This document shows, piece after piece, positions 1 to 8,433 of a stretch of 8,433 nucleotides of DNA (the stretch's first letter is position 1; every line of letters starts with the position of its first letter). The position numbers and the translations under genes were made by a program. Origin of the DNA: a virus. The stretch lies in the UHGV virus genome UHGV-1948712, one strand, 5' to 3'. The notes below the pieces were generated by a model. The model made no database searches, was not told the origin of the DNA, and saw nothing but the letters and a program-made list of their open reading frames with translations.

Positions 1-11
1 TTATGCGCACC
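1..11 (-). other. dif-like XerC-binding arm, site truncated by the window edge
   Basis: Window bases 1..11 are TTATGCGCACC, the exact reverse complement of GGTGCGCATAA, which I recall as the XerC arm of E. coli dif (GGTGCGCATAA-TGTATA-TTATGTTAAAT). The central region and XerD arm would lie beyond position 1. Confidence 0.5.
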
Positions 12-49: not shown

Positions 50-283
50 TCATTGGTCACAGACCGTAATCCACTGGCCCAGGACGTCTTTCAGGCAATG
101 TTGGCATAAATCCAGTTTTAAGCGATTACTGTCACCAAAAATTGAACCGTATCCAGCTAAGTGATTAACAGACAGAAACTCATTGAACTCAATGTCATCT
201 ACCACCGTCTTCGCATGGCGACCACAGCGATCGCAGGTCTTCGCACATAACATTACAGTATCGCTGGATGTGAAAAATTGCAT
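50..283 (-). CDS. small zinc-ribbon protein (CxxC ... CxxC), 77 aa, function unknown
   Basis: ATG at 283..281 preceded by a strong SD (GAGGAG, 5-nt spacer, minus strand 294..289). Protein has CDRC and CQHC motifs about 39 residues apart, a zinc-ribbon architecture like the N-domain of MqsA/YgiT-type proteins. No Ff phage counterpart that I recognise. Confidence 0.6.
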   Translation of the reverse strand: MQFFTSSDTVMLCAKTCDRCGRHAKTVVDDIEFNEFLSVNHLAGYGSIFGDSNRLKLDLCQHCLKDVLGQWITVCDQ

Positions 284-400
284 TTTATCTCCTCGTAATG
301 CTGCCGCGCCGAATCAGCAATAACGCTAAAAAAACAGAATTGTTCGGCTTGGCCAACCCCTGACACTAACAAAAGCAAGTTTTGTCATTGTCCGGGGTTA

Positions 401-709
401 TCATATAAACCAATAGACCGTCCTTACGCCATTCTGGTTATCAATAACATAGCCGCATTGTTTCCTTAAAAATTCTTCTGCTAAATCAATGGCTTTTACA
501 GAAATCTCATAAGAAGGAAGTAAAGTGTATCCTTTCCCTTCACTGGCAGCTGCTTTGATCGCATCCAGAGTATTATCAATCAGTAACAGAGCAAGTGATG
601 CTTCATTTACCTGAGCCGAAGAACTTCTGGCTGCAAGTGTCATTGTTTTTGCTTCTTCCGCTGTAATCGTTCGTTCTGCCAGAGCAGATAAAATCCCATA
701 AGAATCCAT
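401..709 (-). CDS. hypothetical protein, 102 aa
   Basis: ATG at 709..707 with a weak GGGG SD-like motif upstream. Lies between gene IV and the zinc-ribbon gene on the same strand as the phage genes. Not recognisable as an Ff protein. Confidence 0.5.
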   Translation of the reverse strand: MDSYGILSALAERTITAEEAKTMTLAARSSSAQVNEASLALLLIDNTLDAIKAAASEGKGYTLLPSYEISVKAIDLAEEFLRKQCGYVIDNQNGVRTVYWFI

Positions 710-735: not shown

Positions 736-782
736 TTGATGGATAGCGAGCAGGGCTCACGCACCTACCCGCTATCCATCAA
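736..782. repeat. 13-bp perfect inverted repeat with 21-nt loop immediately after gene IV
   Basis: TTGATGGATAGCG (736..748) and CGCTATCCATCAA (770..782) are exact reverse complements. The upstream arm overlaps the gene IV stop codon. No U-tract follows on the minus-strand transcript, so it is not a canonical intrinsic terminator. Position matches where Ff phages carry the packaging-signal hairpin. Confidence 0.5.
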
Positions 783-2044
783 AGTGGACGAATGATATGT
801 GCTGTAAGCAAAATATACATAATACGCTGTTCATTGCTGTCTGCCTTGCTACTGAAAATCCAGCCTATAAGAGGAATTTTACTTATAACTGGAACTGAAC
901 GCTCGGCATTGCTGAACGATGAATCGATAAGCCCCCCCAATAACAACGTCTGACCATCCTTAATCTGGACTGTCGTCTGAATCTGGCGCTGATTAGTAAT
1001 AATATCGGATGCCTGATCATCATTGCTGATTGAATCAGCGCGAGTGTCGATAGTCAGAACTAGTTGCCCGTTACCCATGACAACAGGCGTTACCTTGAGA
1101 GAAACGCCAACATCATGACGCTCGATAGTCTGAAACGGATTATTTACCCCGGCAGATTCGCCCGTTACCTTTCCGGTGATAAACGGCACATTCTTACCTA
1201 CGGAAATGTAACCAGTCTGACCAGACTGAGTAAGAATACGCGGCGTTGAAATCACCTTAGAGCGTGAATTACTCTGGACAGCACGCAGAGACAGCGCCAA
1301 CACGTTACCATCAAAAATACCAAAAGAACCGCCCGCCGTAGAAAGAGCGCTACCCAGTGCAGAAGTATTAAAGCCCCCCGCAACCTTATGACCGGATGCA
1401 GAACCTGCCGCAAACGATAAATCAACGCCATCAGACAAGCTGGTTTCAAACATCAGCGACTGAATGAGAACCTGATCGCGGGCAACATCCACAGAATTGA
1501 TAAAATCGGACAGAACCGGCAGCAGCTCGTCAGGCGCAGAAACAATCAGCGAGTTATTGCCTGGATAATCCACGACATTACCACCACCATTAGAATCAAG
1601 ATAAATTTTAATCAGTTGCTGAACATCGGACGATCTAACTTTTGTCAGCTTAAAATTTCTGACCGTAAGCGCCACAGGTACTGGCTGGTAAGATGGCTCA
1701 GAAGGAAAAGTATCATAAGACTGGTTATCAGAATCATCGGAATCCGAAACCATCTGTGAAGGTAATTTAGACGGCAAAGAGACTACCGCAGGATTGCCAG
1801 AAAGCATGACAAAACCGTTAGCATTCAGAACAGACTTAAAGAAATCATCAATATTTGTTGGATTAACATCAGCATTAAATACGGTTACGTTTCCTTTAAT
1901 ATCAGGATTAACAATAACAGGCTTGCCAGTTTTTGAAGAATACCGCTGAACAAATGAGCGAACAGATGAATTATTTAAATTAACAGTTTCAGCAGAAACG
2001 CAGAATGAACAGGCAAATAAAAAAGCAACAATAACAGAGCGCAT
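779..2044 (-). CDS. IV: gene IV protein, outer-membrane secretin for virion export
   Basis: 421 aa with clear collinear similarity to M13 pIV as I recall it (e.g. SVPRILT, GESA, VNNPFQTIER, GQTLLLGG, SKIPLIG). Start set at Met 2044 (N-terminal MRSVIVAFLFACSFCVSA looks like a signal peptide) with AGGAG SD at 2059..2055. The longer 779..2137 ORF is an in-frame extension overlapping gene I. Confidence 0.9.
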   Translation of the reverse strand: MRSVIVAFLFACSFCVSAETVNLNNSSVRSFVQRYSSKTGKPVIVNPDIKGNVTVFNADVNPTNIDDFFKSVLNANGFVMLSGNPAVVSLPSKLPSQMVSDSDDSDNQSYDTFPSEPSYQPVPVALTVRNFKLTKVRSSDVQQLIKIYLDSNGGGNVVDYPGNNSLIVSAPDELLPVLSDFINSVDVARDQVLIQSLMFETSLSDGVDLSFAAGSASGHKVAGGFNTSALGSALSTAGGSFGIFDGNVLALSLRAVQSNSRSKVISTPRILTQSGQTGYISVGKNVPFITGKVTGESAGVNNPFQTIERHDVGVSLKVTPVVMGNGQLVLTIDTRADSISNDDQASDIITNQRQIQTTVQIKDGQTLLLGGLIDSSFSNAERSVPVISKIPLIGWIFSSKADSNEQRIMYILLTAHIIRPL

Positions 2045-2051
2045 AATAATA

Positions 2052-2426
2052 TTACTCCTGACAGGTAACAGTCTGTAAATAACGGCCTTTTCTAATAACA
2101 ACACGACAGGCATCTTTAATATCAACGGAATAACCATCTTTAATCAAATCAAAATACTGATATTTCATACCTTTTGCATCAACAAACGTAACGGAAACGT
2201 CAAAGCCAAGTTGTGAAAAAGAATTAATAGAAAGTCGGGGTAAGTCACTGGACGAATCAGGCGTTACCGCCCTCGCCTGTTCAGCATAAGCAGATTTAAT
2301 AGCTGAGATTTCATCAACATTCTTTCCAGACTGGAGCCAGAAACCAAACGCAAGCCCCAGCGCCAAAAAAGAAAGCATTAATATAAGACGGTTCGATTTG
2401 CGAAAATAAATTTTAGTGAGGCGCAT
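2052..2426 (-). CDS. XI: gene XI protein, in-frame internal start within gene I
   Basis: Internal Met at residue 241 of pI (MRLTKIYF...), the same position and context as M13 pXI (MKLTKIYL...), followed by a hydrophobic TM segment. 124 aa. Confidence 0.6.
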   Translation of the reverse strand: MRLTKIYFRKSNRLILMLSFLALGLAFGFWLQSGKNVDEISAIKSAYAEQARAVTPDSSSDLPRLSINSFSQLGFDVSVTFVDAKGMKYQYFDLIKDGYSVDIKDACRVVIRKGRYLQTVTCQE

Positions 2427-3146
2427 ATAATAATTAAATCCTCTGTGAACAGAAAATTGACCGTGCGTGATAAATGGTGGCAAAAGCGAAAATGCGCCAT
2501 GAGGATAATTATCTGTGAACGCTTGTTTGGTATTGTAAGCAGAATAAAGAGATTTTCCTGTATATATCCATTTATCAACAGTGATTGAATTAACATTATC
2601 ACCATATTTGACAATGCCAAAGTGTACCTTTGGTAAAGAAAATCTCGCCCCTGAAACCAAATTCATAATGGAGCCAACAAAAGGAATGTTTAATTTATCT
2701 GAACGGCGACAATAAACAACATGCTCAGCAAGCGCCAGACGAGCTTGCTTATCCATTATCGAAATATCCTGAATCAAAAATATAATATCCCAGCCTAATT
2801 TTCTGGCATGTAAAAACCAGTCAATAACAGGTTGTCTGTCTTTATCACCCCATGAGCGGGAATTAAACCAAGTACCACATTCATCAAGTACAAGGAGGCC
2901 ATTACGGGATTCATCGTAAGATGTATTCCCAATACCAATAGCAAGTAAATCATTTAATGAAGGCTTGTCAGGAATGCGAATAACGCGCGTTTTTTTCGCA
3001 TAACGCCCAACCATAGGCATATTATGCAATTTAAGATCAAGATTAGTGGCAACAGGACAACCCTTAGCAAGTCTTTCCTGTATTCTGGAAACACTAACAA
3101 GTGTCTTGCCTGAGCCTAATTTGCCTGTTACTACATAAACCGCCAT
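2052..3146 (-). CDS. I: gene I protein, Zot-like inner-membrane assembly ATPase
   Basis: 364 aa. N-terminus MAVYVVTGKLGSGKTLVS carries a Walker A motif and is near-identical to M13 pI as recalled; DWFLHARKLGWDIIFL and LALAEHVVYCRR are also conserved. The ATG directly follows the gene VI stop (TAAATG). Confidence 0.92.
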   Translation of the reverse strand: MAVYVVTGKLGSGKTLVSVSRIQERLAKGCPVATNLDLKLHNMPMVGRYAKKTRVIRIPDKPSLNDLLAIGIGNTSYDESRNGLLVLDECGTWFNSRSWGDKDRQPVIDWFLHARKLGWDIIFLIQDISIMDKQARLALAEHVVYCRRSDKLNIPFVGSIMNLVSGARFSLPKVHFGIVKYGDNVNSITVDKWIYTGKSLYSAYNTKQAFTDNYPHGAFSLLPPFITHGQFSVHRGFNYYMRLTKIYFRKSNRLILMLSFLALGLAFGFWLQSGKNVDEISAIKSAYAEQARAVTPDSSSDLPRLSINSFSQLGFDVSVTFVDAKGMKYQYFDLIKDGYSVDIKDACRVVIRKGRYLQTVTCQE

Positions 3147-3488
3147 TTAAATCACCCTGTTTGCATAATCAAGAAATTTTTGTTTTAAATCGAAAACAAA
3201 AACACTGATACGAGTAACCATAATAACGTTAACACACGCCTGAAAATGGTCAGGCAATACAGACGCCATTAAATGGGAGAAATCAGCAGGTAAACCGTTA
3301 TACATGACCTCAGCAAGGTACTGCATTAAAAGCGTAACAGTTGTTGTAATTAATGCGACCAATGCAAAGGCGATTAATCCTGTTCTGGTAGCAAGTCGAG
3401 CTAAAAAAACCGCCACATAGCCAATAAACAAAGGAACAAGACCAATAAGAAAACGCAACAATGCAGGAATACCTAATAATAAAGGCAT
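3147..3488 (-). CDS. VI: gene VI protein, minor coat protein
   Basis: 113 aa hydrophobic protein similar to M13 pVI ([13 protein letters not shown].., C-terminal FVFDLKQK). ATG at 3488..3486 overlaps the gene III TGA stop (TGATG coupling). The ORF track start at 3491 is a GTG one codon upstream. Confidence 0.85.
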   Translation of the reverse strand: MPLLLGIPALLRFLIGLVPLFIGYVAVFLARLATRTGLIAFALVALITTTVTLLMQYLAEVMYNGLPADFSHLMASVLPDHFQACVNVIMVTRISVFVFDLKQKFLDYANRVI

Positions 3489-4747
3489 CACTCACCCCCT
3501 TTGCGAAGCAATGAAGTTAAAGAAGTAAAGACATACCAGAACGTAAGGCAATAAAAAACCCATGAAAGAACATCTTTAATAGTCAGTAATTTATCGCAAC
3601 CAATATCAATCTGATAAACCTCTCCGGGAAAAATAATAAAATCAGAGCAGCCGTTACCATTGGGTAAATTAGGCAGCATAGCACCTTTATTTAAAAATGC
3701 TTCCCATAAAGCACCGTGAGAATCCTTTTCAATTCCCAATTCAGAATCAGCTAAAGTAGAAGCGCCATCTAATTCAGAGTCGCCCTTTCCATAACGAGAA
3801 TCACCACCTGAAGGGTCAGCAAAACGGCCAGCCCCCCGCGTAAGATTGTTAATGGAATCGTCAAGACGATTTATATTATTCCTGGTTTGTTCATCGGCAT
3901 TTTTTTTATCATCTGATGAAGTGTCTTTCTCCGTTAATTTATCATGAATATCGCTGGCTATTTTGGGTGAAGCACCTTCGATCGCAGACTGAATATCACC
4001 TTTAGAAAGACTGGAACCACTAGAGCCACCGCCAGAACTACCGCCAGAACTACCGCCAGAACTACCGCCACCGGACTCACCACCGCCAGACTCACCACCA
4101 CCGGACTCACCACCACCGGACTCACCACCACCATTTTGGGGGGTTGAGGGTTTATCAGAGGGGTCAGCTACAGCACCTGTAGGCTTCCATGTTGCAGCGC
4201 AAACAGTACCATCACCCTGACAAACAATGACACCAGTAGCCTCATATTCACAGCCGTTATAGTAGATATAGCGACCACCATCATATGAATCAACATTATT
4301 AAATACACCTTCTTCTGGCGGCTTCGCTTCACAAATTTCTTCTGGTGTCGGGTCAGTAGGTTTTTCATCAGGAACAGAACGCTGAATATTACCAACAATA
4401 TAAGCCGTTAAAGACCAATATTTATCCTTCTGCCCTGGTGAATCGCTGTAAGTACAATCGCCAGTAAAAACAAGACGGAATTCAGAATCAGGCCAGATAC
4501 CCTCATAAGTTGGTTTAATCCGAGTAAATACACTCTGAGCACTGGATTTAGCACCCTGACAAGCGGAGGCCTGCATAGCAGCATCAATATAGTAAACCGT
4601 TATCTTAGAGCCATCCTGATTGGTTATTTGCTTACTTTCAGCATAGGCAGAACTTTGATAAGTGGATTTAGTAATGCTTTCCCATGACTCAGCATGTGAA
4701 AAAGGAGAAATGAGGACAGCGGAAAGAATTAATATTTTCCTTCTCAT
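3488..4747 (-). CDS. III: gene III protein, adsorption/minor coat protein
   Basis: 419 aa from Met 4747 (signal peptide [19 protein letters not shown]), Cys-rich N-terminal domains, long Gly-rich linker, C-terminal hydrophobic anchor. The longer ORF to 4891 would overlap gene VIII and its terminator. Confidence 0.85.
4010..4132. repeat. tandem 15-nt and 12-nt coding repeats (GGGES x4, GGSS x3) in the gene III linker
   Basis: Near-perfect repeats of CCACCGGACTCACCA-type and CCGCCAGAACTA-type units, translating on the minus strand to [41 protein letters not shown]. Confidence 0.85.
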
Positions 4748-4793: not shown

Positions 4794-5036
4794 TCAAACC
4801 GCTTTTGAAGAGAATTTTTTGAAAATACGAATGGCAAGCCCAGCGCCAACCACAGCAACAACAACAGGCCATACTTTACCAATGAGATCATTTGCCTGAG
4901 TCAACAAAGCATCCATTGCCTGACCTGCATAATCAGTACCACCTGTAGCGCCTTCAGCCGCAAAAGAACTTGCAGAAATAAAAAGCGCAGTTGAAGCCAG
5001 AGCAATTTTATATTTAACAGTAGACAGAATTTTCAT
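4794..5036 (-). CDS. VIII: gene VIII protein, major coat protein precursor
   Basis: 80 aa: signal peptide ending SFA, mature part beginning AEG, a hydrophobic core and basic C-terminus KKFSSKAV (M13: KKFTSKAS). GGAG SD at 5048..5045 with 8-nt spacer. Confidence 0.9.
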
Positions 5037-5055: not shown

Positions 5056-5151
5056 TTACATTAATCGGTCAGAAAATGATTTAAATGAACCGACCGCATA
5101 GAAAAGGGCAAAACCAAAGGTATAAGCCCCGAAGAAATAAACGATATACAT
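5056..5151 (-). CDS. IX: gene IX protein, minor coat protein
   Basis: 31 aa hydrophobic peptide MYIVYFFGAYTFGFALFYAVGSFKSFSDRLM. ATG overlaps the gene VII stop (TAATG). Size and position match M13 pIX (32 aa). Confidence 0.65.
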   Translation of the reverse strand: MYIVYFFGAYTFGFALFYAVGSFKSFSDRLM

Positions 5152-5237
5152 TAACGAAAGACCCCCGCAGTAATCGCGCCGAGGCCAAAAGAAATAACGA
5201 TGCCAGACGCTATCAAAATTTGAATAACATCGTCCAT
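5151..5237 (-). CDS. VII: gene VII protein, minor coat protein
   Basis: 28 aa hydrophobic peptide MDDVIQILIASGIVISFGLGAITAGVFR starting 2 nt after the gene V stop. Size and position match M13 pVII (33 aa). Confidence 0.65.
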   Translation of the reverse strand: MDDVIQILIASGIVISFGLGAITAGVFR

Positions 5238-5239
5238 AT

Positions 5240-5557
5240 TTAACCTTTGATCTCTGCGATGCCACCATCGGAAGCAACATTATAAGTTACACCTTCCCTA
5301 CCCTCCATTGACCACGCACGGACATAGACAGGAATTTGAACTAATTTCCCAATGAAAGCATTCGCCTGGTTCATTAGACCTGCGTTAACGAGAGCCTGAG
5401 AAACTCGAATAATAATTTGATCCTGCTTTGTACCACCAAAACCATCAGGTATTTCAAGGCCAATACCAATTTCATTATAATAGCCCTGACCATTAACTTT
5501 ATTACGTTGGCGGGCTCCCAACATTTTACCCTTAACGAAAAGACCATAATTAGACAT
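5240..5557 (-). CDS. V: gene V-like ssDNA-binding protein
   Basis: 105 aa ORF in the gene V position with AAAGGA SD (7-nt spacer). Only weak similarity to M13 gVp as recalled (segment GQGYYNEIG vs GKPYSLNEQ), so the call rests mainly on synteny. Confidence 0.65.
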   Translation of the reverse strand: MSNYGLFVKGKMLGARQRNKVNGQGYYNEIGIGLEIPDGFGGTKQDQIIIRVSQALVNAGLMNQANAFIGKLVQIPVYVRAWSMEGREGVTYNVASDGGIAEIKG

Positions 5558-5568
5558 ATTACTTTCCT

Positions 5569-5883
5569 TTAATGCCAGCTACTGGCGTGCGAAATACGGT
5601 TGTAATCGAAAATAAAACCTTTCTCATAAATCCATAAGGGGATTTCCGCTGGCTTGGCTTCCAGCGTTCTTATTAGCGGAACAACGTTATTAGAGTCTGG
5701 TGAATCACAATAGAAATTAATATCGATACCGAACGAAAGCAATTCTCTTCTATGGCGATAAAAAGTGTTATGAGGTAACATTTCTTTCATGTTAGCCCCT
5801 TGTTTCCAAAGTAAATAAGTTGACTGTATTTTTCTTGGCAGTTTCGTTATTTTTTCATCACTTAAAATAGCATTCTGATTCAT
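5569..5883 (-). CDS. X: gene X protein, in-frame internal start within gene II
   Basis: Internal Met (MNQNAILSD...) aligned with the M13 pX start (MNIYDDSAVLD...), preceded by a GGGAG SD at 5894..5890. 104 aa C-terminal portion of pII. Confidence 0.6.
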   Translation of the reverse strand: MNQNAILSDEKITKLPRKIQSTYLLWKQGANMKEMLPHNTFYRHRRELLSFGIDINFYCDSPDSNNVVPLIRTLEAKPAEIPLWIYEKGFIFDYNRISHASSWH

Positions 5884-6663
5884 TTCTATTCTCCCTACAT
5901 ATTCAGAGAATAATTGACGTGGTGTTTTCATATTCCAGTTAGCGCCAAGCGTTAAATTTAAATCAATAAGCTCAGTTGTTCTTAATGTTAATTCAATACG
6001 TAATTTATCTTTCGTCCAGTCCAGTAACCCGGCTCGTACAAACTCTTCGGCTATCTGGTGCCCTTTTTTACCAGAAACGTGTTCATCATATTTTGAATAA
6101 AATTTCAGACTCCATCGACGGGAGTTTTTACCTAAATAAACTGTACCGCCTTTCCCACATGCGCGACCATGGCGTGTTTTAGCTTTAAATTCGGCGGCAT
6201 AAAGCCATGATCTGACATTTTCCAGCGTAGATAATGAATACATGTAATTAATGTCAATACGTGAAATTTTATACTGACCTGCCATAACGGCTTTATAAGA
6301 CGCTAAATCATGAGGAATATTCAATAAGGATAAAATCCTGGCATAGACCGTCAACATGAGCCCTTGTATATCATCCGACCCAACAACAGAATGCCCCTGC
6401 AGAAACTTGGAAGGATTACCATCAATGTACAAATGTGTCGCTTTACCTTCGCCATTAGATCCTATCGATCGTACTTTCATCGTTGCTTCATGCGAACCGC
6501 GAACAGTCAGTCGCTTAACGGTTTCCCACTCAATTGCACCGTCAGCATCAACGCTGACAACACTCCCCGCCGGAAGCGGTTTGTGTGTGCAAGGGAAAAT
6601 CCCGGTAAGCCAATCGATCACGAATAAATCCTCAAAATTACAAAAATGATGACTTACTAACAC
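5569..6663 (-). CDS. II: gene II protein, rolling-circle replication initiator/nickase
   Basis: 364 aa with similarity to M13 pII (KFLQGHSVVG vs KVLQGHNVFG; NNVVPLIR vs NNVVPLVR). The start is a GTG at 6663..6661 with a stop 3 codons upstream and no obvious SD, so the exact start is uncertain. Confidence 0.85.
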   Translation of the reverse strand: MLVSHHFCNFEDLFVIDWLTGIFPCTHKPLPAGSVVSVDADGAIEWETVKRLTVRGSHEATMKVRSIGSNGEGKATHLYIDGNPSKFLQGHSVVGSDDIQGLMLTVYARILSLLNIPHDLASYKAVMAGQYKISRIDINYMYSLSTLENVRSWLYAAEFKAKTRHGRACGKGGTVYLGKNSRRWSLKFYSKYDEHVSGKKGHQIAEEFVRAGLLDWTKDKLRIELTLRTTELIDLNLTLGANWNMKTPRQLFSEYVGRIEMNQNAILSDEKITKLPRKIQSTYLLWKQGANMKEMLPHNTFYRHRRELLSFGIDINFYCDSPDSNNVVPLIRTLEAKPAEIPLWIYEKGFIFDYNRISHASSWH

Positions 6664-6790: not shown

Positions 6791-6973
6791 ATGGCAAAGC
6801 GCACGACTTATAACGTGACGGAAGAAAGAAAAATGAAACTAGAACGACTGGCTATAAATGCCAGTGTAAAACTAGGAAAAACAATTACATGGACAGAGAT
6901 TTTAGGTTATCTGATTGATAACTACTCTAAAGATGCAGCAGAAGATCTCATGTCTGCCAAACAAAAGGATTAA
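6791..6973 (+). CDS. ribbon-helix-helix-like small DNA-binding regulator, 60 aa
   Basis: MAKRTTYNVTEERKMKLERLAINASVKLGKTITWTEILGYLIDNY fits the RHH pattern (basic beta-strand, helix A, G-containing turn, helix B) of CopG/Arc/MetJ-type proteins. Transcribed divergently from gene II. No SD before the ATG, so it may be leaderless or start elsewhere. Confidence 0.5.
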   Translation: MAKRTTYNVTEERKMKLERLAINASVKLGKTITWTEILGYLIDNYSKDAAEDLMSAKQKD

Positions 6974-7026
6974 GTACCACGAATGGTACAAACGTGCAGT
7001 ATTACCTACACTGCACGTTCTTTATT
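6974..7026 (+). terminator. tandem hairpins, the second terminator-like
   Basis: Hairpin 1: GTACCA (6974..6979) / TGGTAC (6984..6989), 4-nt loop. Hairpin 2: AACGTGCAGT (6991..7000) / ACTGCACGTT (7010..7019), 9-nt loop, followed by CTTTATT. Sits just after the RHH gene stop. Confidence 0.5.
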
Positions 7027-7061
7027 GTGCGGATTTTGAACAGCAACAAAGGATCAAAAGG

Positions 7062-7484
7062 ATGAGTAGAAATAACGAAACAAGCGGCGTTGAACTGGTT
7101 GTTGTAGGCGTATTTGCTTTCTGTCTGGCAGTTGTTGCCTGGCTAATGAAAACTTTCGATGTTGAATGGCAAACAGCACTGGAAACTGCGCCTGGCCTGA
7201 TAGTCTGGCTGCTTGTTGTCGGTGCGGGGATCTTTTTCGGGATCAAAATGGAAACTGGCCTTATTCGCTGGGGTGCTCCACTGGCGATCGCCCTTCTGAT
7301 TCCGGTATTCAAGCCAATTCTTAAGGAAGCTGCCGGAGTTCGTGAAACGGGTGGGCTGGTTTTCGATGATATGGTTTCGTGGTATGGAACTGGCTGGGGA
7401 ATGTCTCTGATGTTCTTCGGGATTCTTATTGTCGGATACGGTCTGCTTTATTGGTGGCACAGAAGGAATTCATATTATTGGTGA
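7062..7484 (+). CDS. small integral membrane protein (3-4 predicted TM helices), 140 aa
   Basis: ATG at 7062 with AAGGA SD at 7049..7053 (8-nt spacer). Hydrophobic stretches LVVVGVFAFCLAVVAWL, GLIVWLLVVGAGIFFGI, APLAIALLIPVF and SLMFFGILIVGYGLLYWW. The ORF track extension back to 6915 would cross the hairpins and overlap the RHH gene, so the internal start is preferred. Confidence 0.5.
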   Translation: MSRNNETSGVELVVVGVFAFCLAVVAWLMKTFDVEWQTALETAPGLIVWLLVVGAGIFFGIKMETGLIRWGAPLAIALLIPVFKPILKEAAGVRETGGLVFDDMVSWYGTGWGMSLMFFGILIVGYGLLYWWHRRNSYYW

Positions 7485-7495
7485 ATGTCAATCAC

Positions 7496-7519
7496 TTGAA
7501 TTTACAGGTTTTTTATAAT
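7496..7519 (+). promoter_or_regulatory. candidate promoter: perfect -10 TATAAT with poorly spaced -35
   Basis: TATAAT at 7514..7519. The nearest TTGAAT (7496..7501) gives only a 12-nt spacer, so the -35 is doubtful. About 40 nt upstream of the 7557 gene. Confidence 0.25.
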
Positions 7520-7556
7520 TTCAGCCCGCGCTAGTTTGATATTGTGAAAGGTGAAG

Positions 7557-8132
7557 ATGAGTATGCAACCGAATGAAGAAATGGACCTCAGGAAATTTTA
7601 CGCAGAGGGAACAGCTGACTACTTAAAAACTAAAATCAAAAAAAGCGAACGACTTTTAAAAATAAACCAATATCTATCATTTGCCCTCCCTGTCCTAGTT
7701 GGAGGATACGCATCGGTTGATCACAGCTCCAAATATTTTGATTTTTTAGTTTGGGGCACAGGGATATTATCAGTGATAGTCTTGCTTTCTAATTTATACA
7801 CGCTGGTCATGAAGACTGATGAAAATTTATCTCGATATCTGGAATCATACTCTTTCAATAAACTCCTAACTGATTTGTATGGCGAACTGTCGAGCATGTT
7901 TAAATCAAAGACAGGCAACCAGCAACCCGCTAACCATTTGTTTTCAGTGATAAAATCAAAAGATGACTTCAATGCCAAGGAAGATGAAAAATATGTTAGC
8001 AATAATGATAAGAAACGGATTATGTTCGACATTCTGGTAAAGAAAAATAAAGAATGCGTACGTTGCAATAAAATACCGACTAAATTTAACAAGCGGAAAG
8101 GTTGCACAAATTGTGGCAATCTCGTGAAATAA
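7557..8132 (+). CDS. 2-TM membrane protein with C-terminal zinc ribbon, 191 aa
   Basis: ATG at 7557 after AAAGGTGA (7546..7553); the ORF track start is a GTG at 7551. Two adjacent hydrophobic helices (YLSFALPVLVGGYASV; FLVWGTGILSVIVLLSNLYTLV), a K/E/N-rich soluble region, then CVRCNK...CTNCGN. Very AT-rich coding sequence. Confidence 0.6.
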   Translation: MSMQPNEEMDLRKFYAEGTADYLKTKIKKSERLLKINQYLSFALPVLVGGYASVDHSSKYFDFLVWGTGILSVIVLLSNLYTLVMKTDENLSRYLESYSFNKLLTDLYGELSSMFKSKTGNQQPANHLFSVIKSKDDFNAKEDEKYVSNNDKKRIMFDILVKKNKECVRCNKIPTKFNKRKGCTNCGNLVK

Positions 8133-8143
8133 AGGAGAAACAA

Positions 8144-8335
8144 ATGAGTTATAAAGTAGATCAAGTCAAAGCTCTCTGGCTTCAATTGACTGATGCGGAG
8201 AAAAAAGAATTTACAACATATCTTTTTAATGGTGAAAAAAAATCCTTACGTGAAGGATTCGAAAGTTTTAGTGTGAATAAAAGCACTACAATGCAATTTG
8301 GTGATGCAAACGTCTGCCCTGCTTGCGGAAAATAA
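8144..8335 (+). CDS. small protein with C-terminal CPAC motif, 63 aa
   Basis: ATG at 8144 preceded by a strong SD AAAGGAG (8131..8137, 6-nt spacer), 11 nt after the stop of the upstream gene, suggesting translational coupling. Ends ...GDANVCPACGK. The ORF track start at 8102 overlaps the upstream gene and lacks an SD. Confidence 0.55.
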   Translation: MSYKVDQVKALWLQLTDAEKKEFTTYLFNGEKKSLREGFESFSVNKSTTMQFGDANVCPACGK

Positions 8336-8376
8336 AATCTAAAAGATTTTGGTTCGCACAATGACGTTATGCTAAA

Positions 8377-8413
8377 GAGGCCGCTGCGGGATTCGATTTT
8401 CGCAGCGGCCTTT
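8377..8413 (+). terminator. rho-independent terminator closing the plus-strand cassette
   Basis: 11-bp GC-rich stem AGGCCGCTGCG (8377..8387) / CGCAGCGGCCT (8400..8410), 12-nt loop, followed by TTTT. Confidence 0.75.
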
Positions 8414-8433
8414 TCAACATAACGAGTCCTACA

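Follow-up and report, generated by a model that had tools for sequence, protein, structure and literature searches.

The window, which is the whole 8,433-nucleotide stretch of DNA analyzed here, comprised exactly one phage unit with a full inovirus gene set (Table 1). The earlier note, made from the sequence alone, had described an entire Ff-like phage beside a dif arm, and a complete Ff/IKe-like inovirus was indeed found there. Its statement that no integrase gene is present also held, given that no ORF contained an integrase or any other recombinase domain in the Pfam, PHROGs, and NCBIfam comparisons. The opposite-strand ORFs at 6791-7484 contained no HTH domain and exhibited no significant Pfam match; the 3' half of this region, including the ORF at 7062-7484, demonstrated 92% nucleotide identity to CUS-1. 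PADLOC returned no defence-system match for any accessory ORF. No match was obtained when the cargo region was compared with plasmids or when gII-gV was compared with the phage collection.

Table 1. Features of the phage unit and of its attachment site (window coordinates unless a locus is named; aa, amino acid; nt, nucleotide).
Feature	Position	Strand	Remarks
attP1 XerC arm GGTGCGCATAA	1..11	-	Identical to the XerC arm of E. coli dif; in the prophage, fused to the host central region and XerD arm, giving a perfect dif
Two accessory ORFs of unknown function (401-709 and 50-283)	50..709	-	phrog_4115, phrog_5435; located after gIV, the position of ctxAB in CTXφ
gIV secretin	779..2044	-	79% nt identity to IKe gene IV over 189 nt; 27% aa identity to CUS-1
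gI assembly ATPase	2052..3146	-	Zot domain; aa identity 66% to IKe pI, 63% to I2-2, 53% to fd
gVI-like minor coat protein	3147..3488	-	DUF5455
gIII attachment protein	3488..4747	-	Four GGGES repeats
gVIII major coat protein	4794..5036	-	
Two small hydrophobic virion-tip proteins (gVII-like 5151-5237 and gIX-like 5056-5151)	5056..5237	-	Pfam Inovirus_G7P_2 on a homologue
gV single-stranded DNA-binding protein	5240..5557	-	93% aa identity to CUS-1
gII replication initiator	5569..6621	-	Phage_CRI and G2P_X_C; 87% aa identity to the CUS-1 protein in UTI89
Two conserved ORFs of unknown function (6791-6973 and 7062-7484)	6791..7484	+	Location of rstR in CTXφ
Variable cargo slot beside attP: TIGR04402 'mobilome CxxCx(11)CxxC' protein (7557-8132) and 63-aa ORF (8144-8335)	7557..8335	+	
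attP2 GGTTCGCACAA-TGACG-TTATGCTAAAG, 5-nt central region	8351..8377	+	Inverted relative to attP1; pairs with attP1 in the predicted viral-strand fold
GC-rich stem-loop, A-T pair plus GGCCGCTGCG / CGCAGCGGCC, 12-nt loop	8378..8411		34 nt, between attP1 and attP2
attP1 XerD-like arm TTATGTTGAAA	8412..8422	-	9/11 relative to the dif XerD arm
attP1 central region, 11 nt, TGTAGGACTCG	8423..8433	-	First 4 nt are the start of the dif TGTATA
Host-dependent far-junction XerC arms AGTGCGCATAA, AATGCGCATAA, GATGCGCATAA	L074-L077 and L081, position 10878 or 19289		Compared with the phage arm GGTGCGCATAA in the regenerated dif

The contents of the cargo slot (7485-8345) varied among the copies of the phage. 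In strain UM146, the slot encodes an ECs_2282-family zinc-binding protein and a hypothetical protein, and other copies carry an STM4504-family protein. Within the assembly collection, the exact TIGR04402 protein of the window was indexed in 1121 blocks. A further difference between copies was the length of the Gly/Ser-rich g3p linker (window 4050-4170; approximately 10050-10230 in locus L001), and the unit of E. coli strain C10 was 57 nt longer than the window. The number of GGGES repeats has been described as variable in UPΦ (PMC7307601).

Positions 1-11 of the window (TTATGCGCACC) were the reverse complement, at all 11 bases, of GGTGCGCATAA, the XerC arm of E. coli dif. The match reported in the earlier note was therefore exact, and it was also the sole copy, because GGTGCGCATAA occurred exactly once in the window when both strands were counted. 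The exact 11-mer was found in none of 200 dinucleotide-preserving shuffles of the window. When up to two mismatches were allowed, the window contained four matches against 2.0 expected; such matches arise at chance frequency, and significance is therefore limited to the exact copy. The dif site of E. coli K-12 is the 28-bp sequence GGTGCGCATAA-TGTATA-TTATGTTAAAT, which occurs once in MG1655, between yneL and hipA. The same sequence is given as dif for E. coli K-12 and also for Y. pestis CO92 by Carnoy and Roten (2009; PMC2731167). Because the phage carries the 11-mer within its own attachment site, the 11-mer is expected in the free replicative form too, and alone it is no proof of integration. 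The reading of the 11-mer as a sign of integration in the earlier note consequently gains its support from homologous loci, whose dif junctions do show integration.

To describe these junctions, we used public copies of the phage that were 99.2-99.4% identical to the window, and the integrated state of the window rests on these homologues, which were its closest matches (none reached 100%). At least 80% of the window was present in 47 complete E. coli genomes, the best of which was that of strain C10 (100% coverage, 99.3% identity), and a 68-nt probe consisting of dif and the phage left end was matched in 49 complete E. coli genomes at a coverage of 80% or more. Immediately left of the phage, both C10 and UM146 read ATTTAACATAA-TATACA (17 bases), which completed a perfect dif (28/28). 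We also analyzed eight further loci encoding the exact cargo protein of the window (L074-L081), all of which contained related prophages; six of the eight exhibited 99.2-99.4% identity over the full window, two of them with an aligned length of exactly 8433. A full dif was present at every visible phage left end in these loci, and the same ATTTAACATAA-TATACA continuation, again yielding a perfect dif, was read at seven junctions. The suggestion that the window starts inside a dif site was thus confirmed, in that the bases to the left read TGTATA-TTATGTTAAAT on the other strand in every near-identical copy read. If the window itself is integrated at dif, the plus strand to its left would be expected to read ATTTAACATAATATACA.

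The right end of the phage, in the near-identical copies, abutted a second XerC arm that was followed by normal chromosomal flank. Consequently, dif was regenerated at one end and a hybrid site was present at the other in these copies, which were 99.2-99.4% identical to the window. In C10, the sequence to the left of dif was identical to that of K-12, and the last phage copy was followed by an XerC arm and a K-12-like flank. Insertion had taken place at the chromosomal dif, with ydeS/fimA-like fimbrial genes on one side and hipBA on the other; the flanks in near-identical genomes are therefore those of the enterobacterial dif region, as the earlier note had anticipated. Tandem copies were also observed, with two in C10 and two in L074, and the genome of strain ECONIH2 matched the window in three places. 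A dif-integrated filamentous prophage could thus be recognized, without any tools, from half a dif site at the edge of the window.

Joining the end of the window to its start yields the circular form, which is also the junction between the tandem copies of C10, and this junction was not a plain dif. Across it, the match to dif grows to 15 of 15 nt (GGTGCGCATAATGTA, the arm plus TGTA). The full attP1 reads GGTGCGCATAA-TGTAGGACTCG-TTATGTTGAAA on the minus strand (window 11..1 followed by 8433..8412). A second dif-like site, for which a search of the right flank had been proposed, was present at 8351-8377 in inverted orientation, and with this arrangement the element falls among the CTX-type IMEX. 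The XerD-like arms of attP1 and attP2 both matched dif at 9 of 11 positions. The leading TGT of the attP1 central region was invariant in all 25 aligned variants. The 5-nt spacer of attP2, on the bottom strand of the folded site, was shorter than both the 6-bp central region of dif and the 7-nt attP2 spacer of CTXφ, a point that counts against the CTX-type reading. A literature search with the attP2 and attP1 arm sequences returned nothing relevant.

The viral (minus) strand of this region was predicted to fold into a bulged hairpin of -27.5 kcal/mol (z = -7.2), and none of 200 shuffles was as stable. The same fold was predicted for all 32 unique attachment-site variants, which came from several unrelated inovirus lineages. 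In an alignment of 25 sequences, in which the stem was fixed by the search pattern used to collect the variants, 95% of cells were paired, 29 of 38 pairs never varied, and two pairs changed on both sides. Because two pairs with two-sided changes were also reached in 103 of 500 shuffles, we claim no covariation support for the hairpin. The alignment is evidence of conservation rather than of covariation, and this conservation could be explained by protein binding or by a terminator instead of by folding. The stem-loop at 8378-8411 is followed by TTTTC on the plus strand and lies directly downstream of the cargo genes; it may double as an intrinsic terminator of the cargo operon. A simple terminator scan did not list this hairpin because its 12-nt loop exceeds the 8-nt limit of the tool.

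The position of the crossover was indicated by the chromosomes whose own XerC arm differs from that of the phage. Four loci belonging to other chromosomes carried, at the far (right) junction, an XerC arm ending in …CACT, …CATT, or …CATC, whereas the regenerated left dif in those loci always had the …CACC (GG) arm of the phage. The retention of host arm variants at the far junction, together with the GG arm at the regenerated dif, indicates that the 11-mer of the window is phage-borne and that the first bases of the host dif XerC arm are rewritten by integration. According to these junction sequences, the crossover lies between arm position 2 (XerC) and central-region position 5, and the XerC cleavage site falls within this interval. 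The junction product is what would be expected if XerC exchanged the attP1 strand with dif once.

We further compared the window with described filamentous phages. The UPΦ phages (UPφ901) were described by Shapiro and Putonti (2020, Virus Evol; PMC7307601), who named ECONIH2 as a strain with a tandem triple of UPΦ. ECONIH2 (CP014667) exhibited 98.4% identity to the window over 90% of its length, and the window was assigned to UPΦ through this named strain rather than through the UPφ901 sequence itself. The window shares with UPΦ the IKe/I2-2-like morphogenesis genes, gII and gV more than 85% identical to those of CUS-1/YpfΦ, the GGGES repeats in g3p, reverse-strand ORFs beside dif, tandem arrays at dif, and two novel ORFs after gIV; the published description likewise places two novel genes in a region that is intergenic in IKe (PMC7307601). 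The two differ in that the cargo of the window (the TIGR04402 protein and the 63-aa ORF) was not matched to h4 and h5 of that description. In addition, the circular junction observed here is a pair of CTX-type sites and not a dif site. Our analysis therefore adds to what was known that the attachment site of UPΦ is a paired inverted CTX-type site, nearly identical to that of YpfΦ, rather than a plain copy of dif.

The earlier note had named CUS-1 of E. coli and YpfΦ of Yersinia pestis as comparable prophages. The dif prophage of UTI89 and the Y. pestis prophage shared 99.4% identity along 7.37 kb, which identifies the UTI89 prophage as CUS-1/YpfΦ. CUS-1 (E. coli O18:K1:H7) and YpfΦ resemble the window phage in the attP1-hairpin-attP2 region (approximately 98.8% identity), in integration at dif with an intact dif regenerated, in tandem copies, and in variable ORFs at both ends (PMC4266046). 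Their structural and assembly genes, by contrast, were unrelated to those of the window at the nucleotide level, and pIV was only 27% identical. Matches between the window and the prophages of UTI89 and Y. pestis were confined to four short stretches, approximately 2.1 kb in total, the main ones being gII-gV (80% nucleotide identity), one accessory ORF region, and attP. Identity with CUS-1/YpfΦ was rejected, given that approximately 99% identity over a core of approximately 7.1 kb would be expected and the window shares only these stretches. On its sequence, the window phage is a mosaic whose replication and integration modules are common to CUS-1/YpfΦ. IKe and I2-2 (Lineavirus) and the Ff phages (fd, M13) resemble it in gene order and morphogenesis proteins, whereas they are non-integrating and are without dif-like sites, the accessory genes, and the replication module of the window. 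The proposal of a dif-integrated (IMEX-type) filamentous prophage is accordingly supported, and CUS-1/YpfΦ as its identity gives way to the UPΦ group. The element is an already described kind of dif-integrating filamentous prophage, the biology of which is established.

The arrangement of sites most closely recalls that of CTXφ, in which attP1 is AGTGCGTATTA-TGTGGCGCGGCA-TTATGTTGAGG with a 12-nt central region, accompanied by an inverted attP2 with a 7-nt spacer (PMC3089051). Experiments on CTXφ demonstrated that these sites fold, in the single-stranded genome, into a hairpin that is the actual substrate (PMC3089051). YpfΦ and CUS-1 are classed with CTXφ, as phages with direct single-stranded integration, in secondary sources (PMC3089051, PMC4246890, PMC4266046). 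Like CTXφ, the window phage has two inverted dif-like sites, an attP1 XerC arm identical to that of the host dif, a long attP1 central region beginning with TGT, an arm beginning with TTATGTTGA, and a short attP2 spacer. The absence of an integrase, the regenerated dif, and the tandem arrays are further points of likeness, as is the gene order of the CTX prophage (hybrid site, opposite-strand ORFs, replication genes, morphogenesis genes, cargo, and dif). Features of the CTX-type IMEX found here were thus the lack of an integrase, insertion at dif with dif regenerated (in the near-identical copies), inverted paired sites, and 15 of 15 nt shared with dif.

The two phages also differ in several respects. 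The sites are approximately 90 nt apart in CTXφ compared with 34 nt in the window phage, and the central regions are 12 and 7 nt compared with 11 and 5 nt. The proteins are unrelated except for generic inovirus domains, and the host and its dif sequence are different. No equivalents of RstR or RstB were identified in the window phage. Whereas the mechanism of CTXφ has been tested experimentally, the window phage is likened to it by its sites and junctions. The VGJφ-type and TLCφ-type IMEX resemble the window phage in using the host XerCD and inserting at dif (PMC4246890). VGJφ, however, has a single 29-bp dif-like site that acts on double-stranded DNA with reversible excision (PMC4246890), in contrast to the paired inverted sites of the window. 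TLCφ integration starts with XerD catalysis (PMC4246890); the type is marked by an attP that lacks a proper XerD arm and by XerD-first exchange under the control of an activating factor encoded by the element. In the window phage, both XerD-like arms match at 9/11, and the crossover in its relatives maps to the XerC side. Membership in the VGJφ type was rejected because the window has two sites, with spacers of 11 and 5 nt, rather than a single near-canonical attP. No ORF exhibited an informative domain match suggesting an activating factor of the TLCφ type.

On the basis of these findings, the window is very probably one genome unit of a UPΦ-group inovirus that was cut exactly at the crossover points of XerCD-mediated insertion into dif, without an integrase and by the CTX-type single-stranded DNA hairpin route. 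By analogy with CTXφ, we infer dependence on XerCD, a single-stranded DNA substrate, catalysis by XerC only, and irreversible integration completed by replication. The packaged strand would be the minus strand of the window, the sense strand of gII to gIV, as in the Ff phages. In this strand, attP1 and attP2 would anneal into the bulged hairpin, which would present an XerC arm and an XerD arm, and the host XerC would swap one pair of strands with dif. The exchange would be stabilized by the 15 nt (arm plus TGTA) common to phage and dif, and replication would then resolve the junction. The expected product has a perfect dif at one end, consisting of the phage XerC arm with the host central region and XerD arm, and a presumably non-functional hybrid at the other. 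A regenerated dif would permit further insertions and thereby tandem arrays. Because the double-stranded prophage would have no usable attP, we propose that phage production would rely on rolling-circle replication spanning tandem copies instead of on excision. YpfΦ is reported to insert between resident copies and, after transduction of laboratory strains of E. coli, to be mostly extrachromosomal (PMC4266046). Neither its insertion between copies nor its episomal carriage is predicted by a simple CTX-type model.

The same sites and junctions were weighed under other explanations. One attributes the 11/11 match to coincidence, or to an artefact in the cutting of the window, with no connection to Xer recombination. 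An 11-mer is short, and two-mismatch matches arise at chance frequency, but the probability of this explanation is practically negligible: besides being absent from the 200 shuffles, the exact match runs to 15 nt over the circular junction and lies exactly at the prophage boundary, beside the rest of dif, in dozens of genomes. The shuffles and the junction data together ruled out a chance match, and the view of the earlier note that chance was an unlikely origin stands. It is also very improbable that the dif-like sites constitute a multimer-resolution site of the cer/psi type, belonging to a phage or plasmid replicon, with the chromosomal copies being incidental. The occurrence of the inner 72 bp of the site on approximately 440 mostly conjugative plasmids, a related phage that is a free 7.4-kb circle in E. 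coli A37, and the extrachromosomal state of YpfΦ in many hosts (PMC4266046) would fit such a role. Against it, the dif junction was present in all 47-49 complete E. coli genomes with the phage, all but a few places were chromosomal and at dif, and the structure of the junctions was exactly that of a site-specific exchange at the XerC cleavage point. Moreover, known resolution sites have spacers of 6-8 bp, unlike attP1 and attP2.

A closer competitor is a route of the VGJφ type, in which the double-stranded replicative form would integrate through attP1 alone, by XerC exchange and replication, and reversibly. We consider this route unlikely, and just as unlikely the accompanying notion that attP2 and the hairpin are irrelevant to integration and serve, for example, only as a terminator. 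The attP1 site does have a perfect XerC arm, 4 nt of central homology on the XerC side, and a 9/11 XerD arm, and the junctions by themselves fit a single-stranded or a double-stranded substrate equally. The weak covariation for the fold and the location of a hairpin followed by TTTT directly after the cargo genes also agree with a double-stranded route. However, a double-stranded attP1 would have a spacer of 11 bp (10 bp in some variants), far from the 6-bp spacer of dif, and it would not resemble the single 29-bp dif-like site of VGJφ. Furthermore, attP2 lies beside attP1 in every lineage examined, including those with unrelated replication and morphogenesis genes, and the same architecture in CTXφ acts experimentally as folded single-stranded DNA (PMC3089051). 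The hairpin route of the CTX type is therefore preferred.

We next considered how widely the site occurs. A stem-loop scan of IMG/VR identified approximately 50 inovirus-sized contigs with the same layout, and several E. coli prophages with unrelated replication and morphogenesis genes carried the attP1-hairpin-attP2 arrangement. Species representatives with the same layout were found in Yersinia pestis, Photorhabdus, Pectobacterium, Lelliottia, and Kluyvera, and a Kosakonia contig carried the attP1 half only. The Y. pestis (YpfΦ) site differed from that of the window by one base, located in the attP1 central region. These findings add that the integration module is common to several unrelated lineages of enterobacterial inoviruses. 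An episomal example was observed in E. coli A37, in which 'plasmid unnamed4' (NZ_CP195780.1, 7439 bp; L007) is the whole circular genome of an inovirus from another lineage (DUF2523 pVI), with the attP1-hairpin-attP2 layout at 4580-4670.

Half of the site was also observed on plasmids. The inner 72 bp (8350-8421, comprising attP2, the hairpin, and the XerD-like arm) occurred at approximately 93% identity on approximately 440 plasmids, for the most part of the conjugative IncF type; 393 were conjugative, 348 were from E. coli, 50 from Klebsiella, and 20 from Salmonella. The segment was unannotated on the plasmids (4001-4071 in plasmid locus L005 and 4001-4062 in L006). On the IncF plasmid NZ_OW968112.1, it lies directly behind a gene of the STM4504/CBY_0614 family that shares only 69% identity with the cargo version found in some UPΦ copies, and the 72 bp are thus much better conserved than the neighbouring gene. 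The same plasmid (locus L005) additionally contains, on the minus strand at 1288-1315, a canonical-looking XerCD site, TGTGCGCACAA-TCTATC-TTATGTTAAAT, with a 6-bp spacer; this site and the attP2-like site are 2.7 kb apart and have opposite orientations. The inner flank of this XerCD site (L005 1316-1340) is aacattgtagaggctcaatgctaat, and in two chromosomes (L077 and L080, from 10889 onward) this sequence also comes after the XerC arm on the right side of UPΦ prophages. The plasmid segment may represent a module that depends on Xer but is not a phage, in this instance disrupted by transposase-like ORFs.

A further element of approximately 3.4 kb, with three hypothetical genes, was observed in C10 between the tandem prophages and the chromosomal flank (L004 9185-12629). 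It has exact XerC arms at both bounds; its first 25 bases resemble the K-12 dif flank, and its far end is ATTTAACATGT-TCAACACA, followed by the XerC arm. It is probably another dif-integrated element. The plasmid sites and this element suggest arrays of Xer-exploiting elements, some of which are not phages. That the attP2-hairpin half forms the boundary of a portable Xer-dependent cassette beyond phages is a speculative idea to which we give a rather low probability. If it were true, a CTX-type route would let non-phage gene modules travel among chromosomal dif, filamentous phages, and the XerCD sites of plasmids, making them an enterobacterial counterpart to the pdif modules of Acinetobacter. 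The plasmid-borne copies of the half-site are accordingly a lead rather than a finding.

Some database records of this region warrant comment. In the RefSeq record of UM146 (NC_017632.1; L002 14400-14640), dense runs of N lie directly to the right of the prophage, where the phage left end and the chromosomal flank would be confused, and hipA is flagged as a pseudogene with 'too many ambiguous residues'. These runs are probably an assembly artefact arising from tandem copies. Metagenome bins labelled Candidatus Nanosynbacter and Ruminococcaceae (L083 and L091) contained the enterobacterial attP followed by a dif flank of the E. coli type, and the presence of attP in these bins most likely reflects bin contamination.
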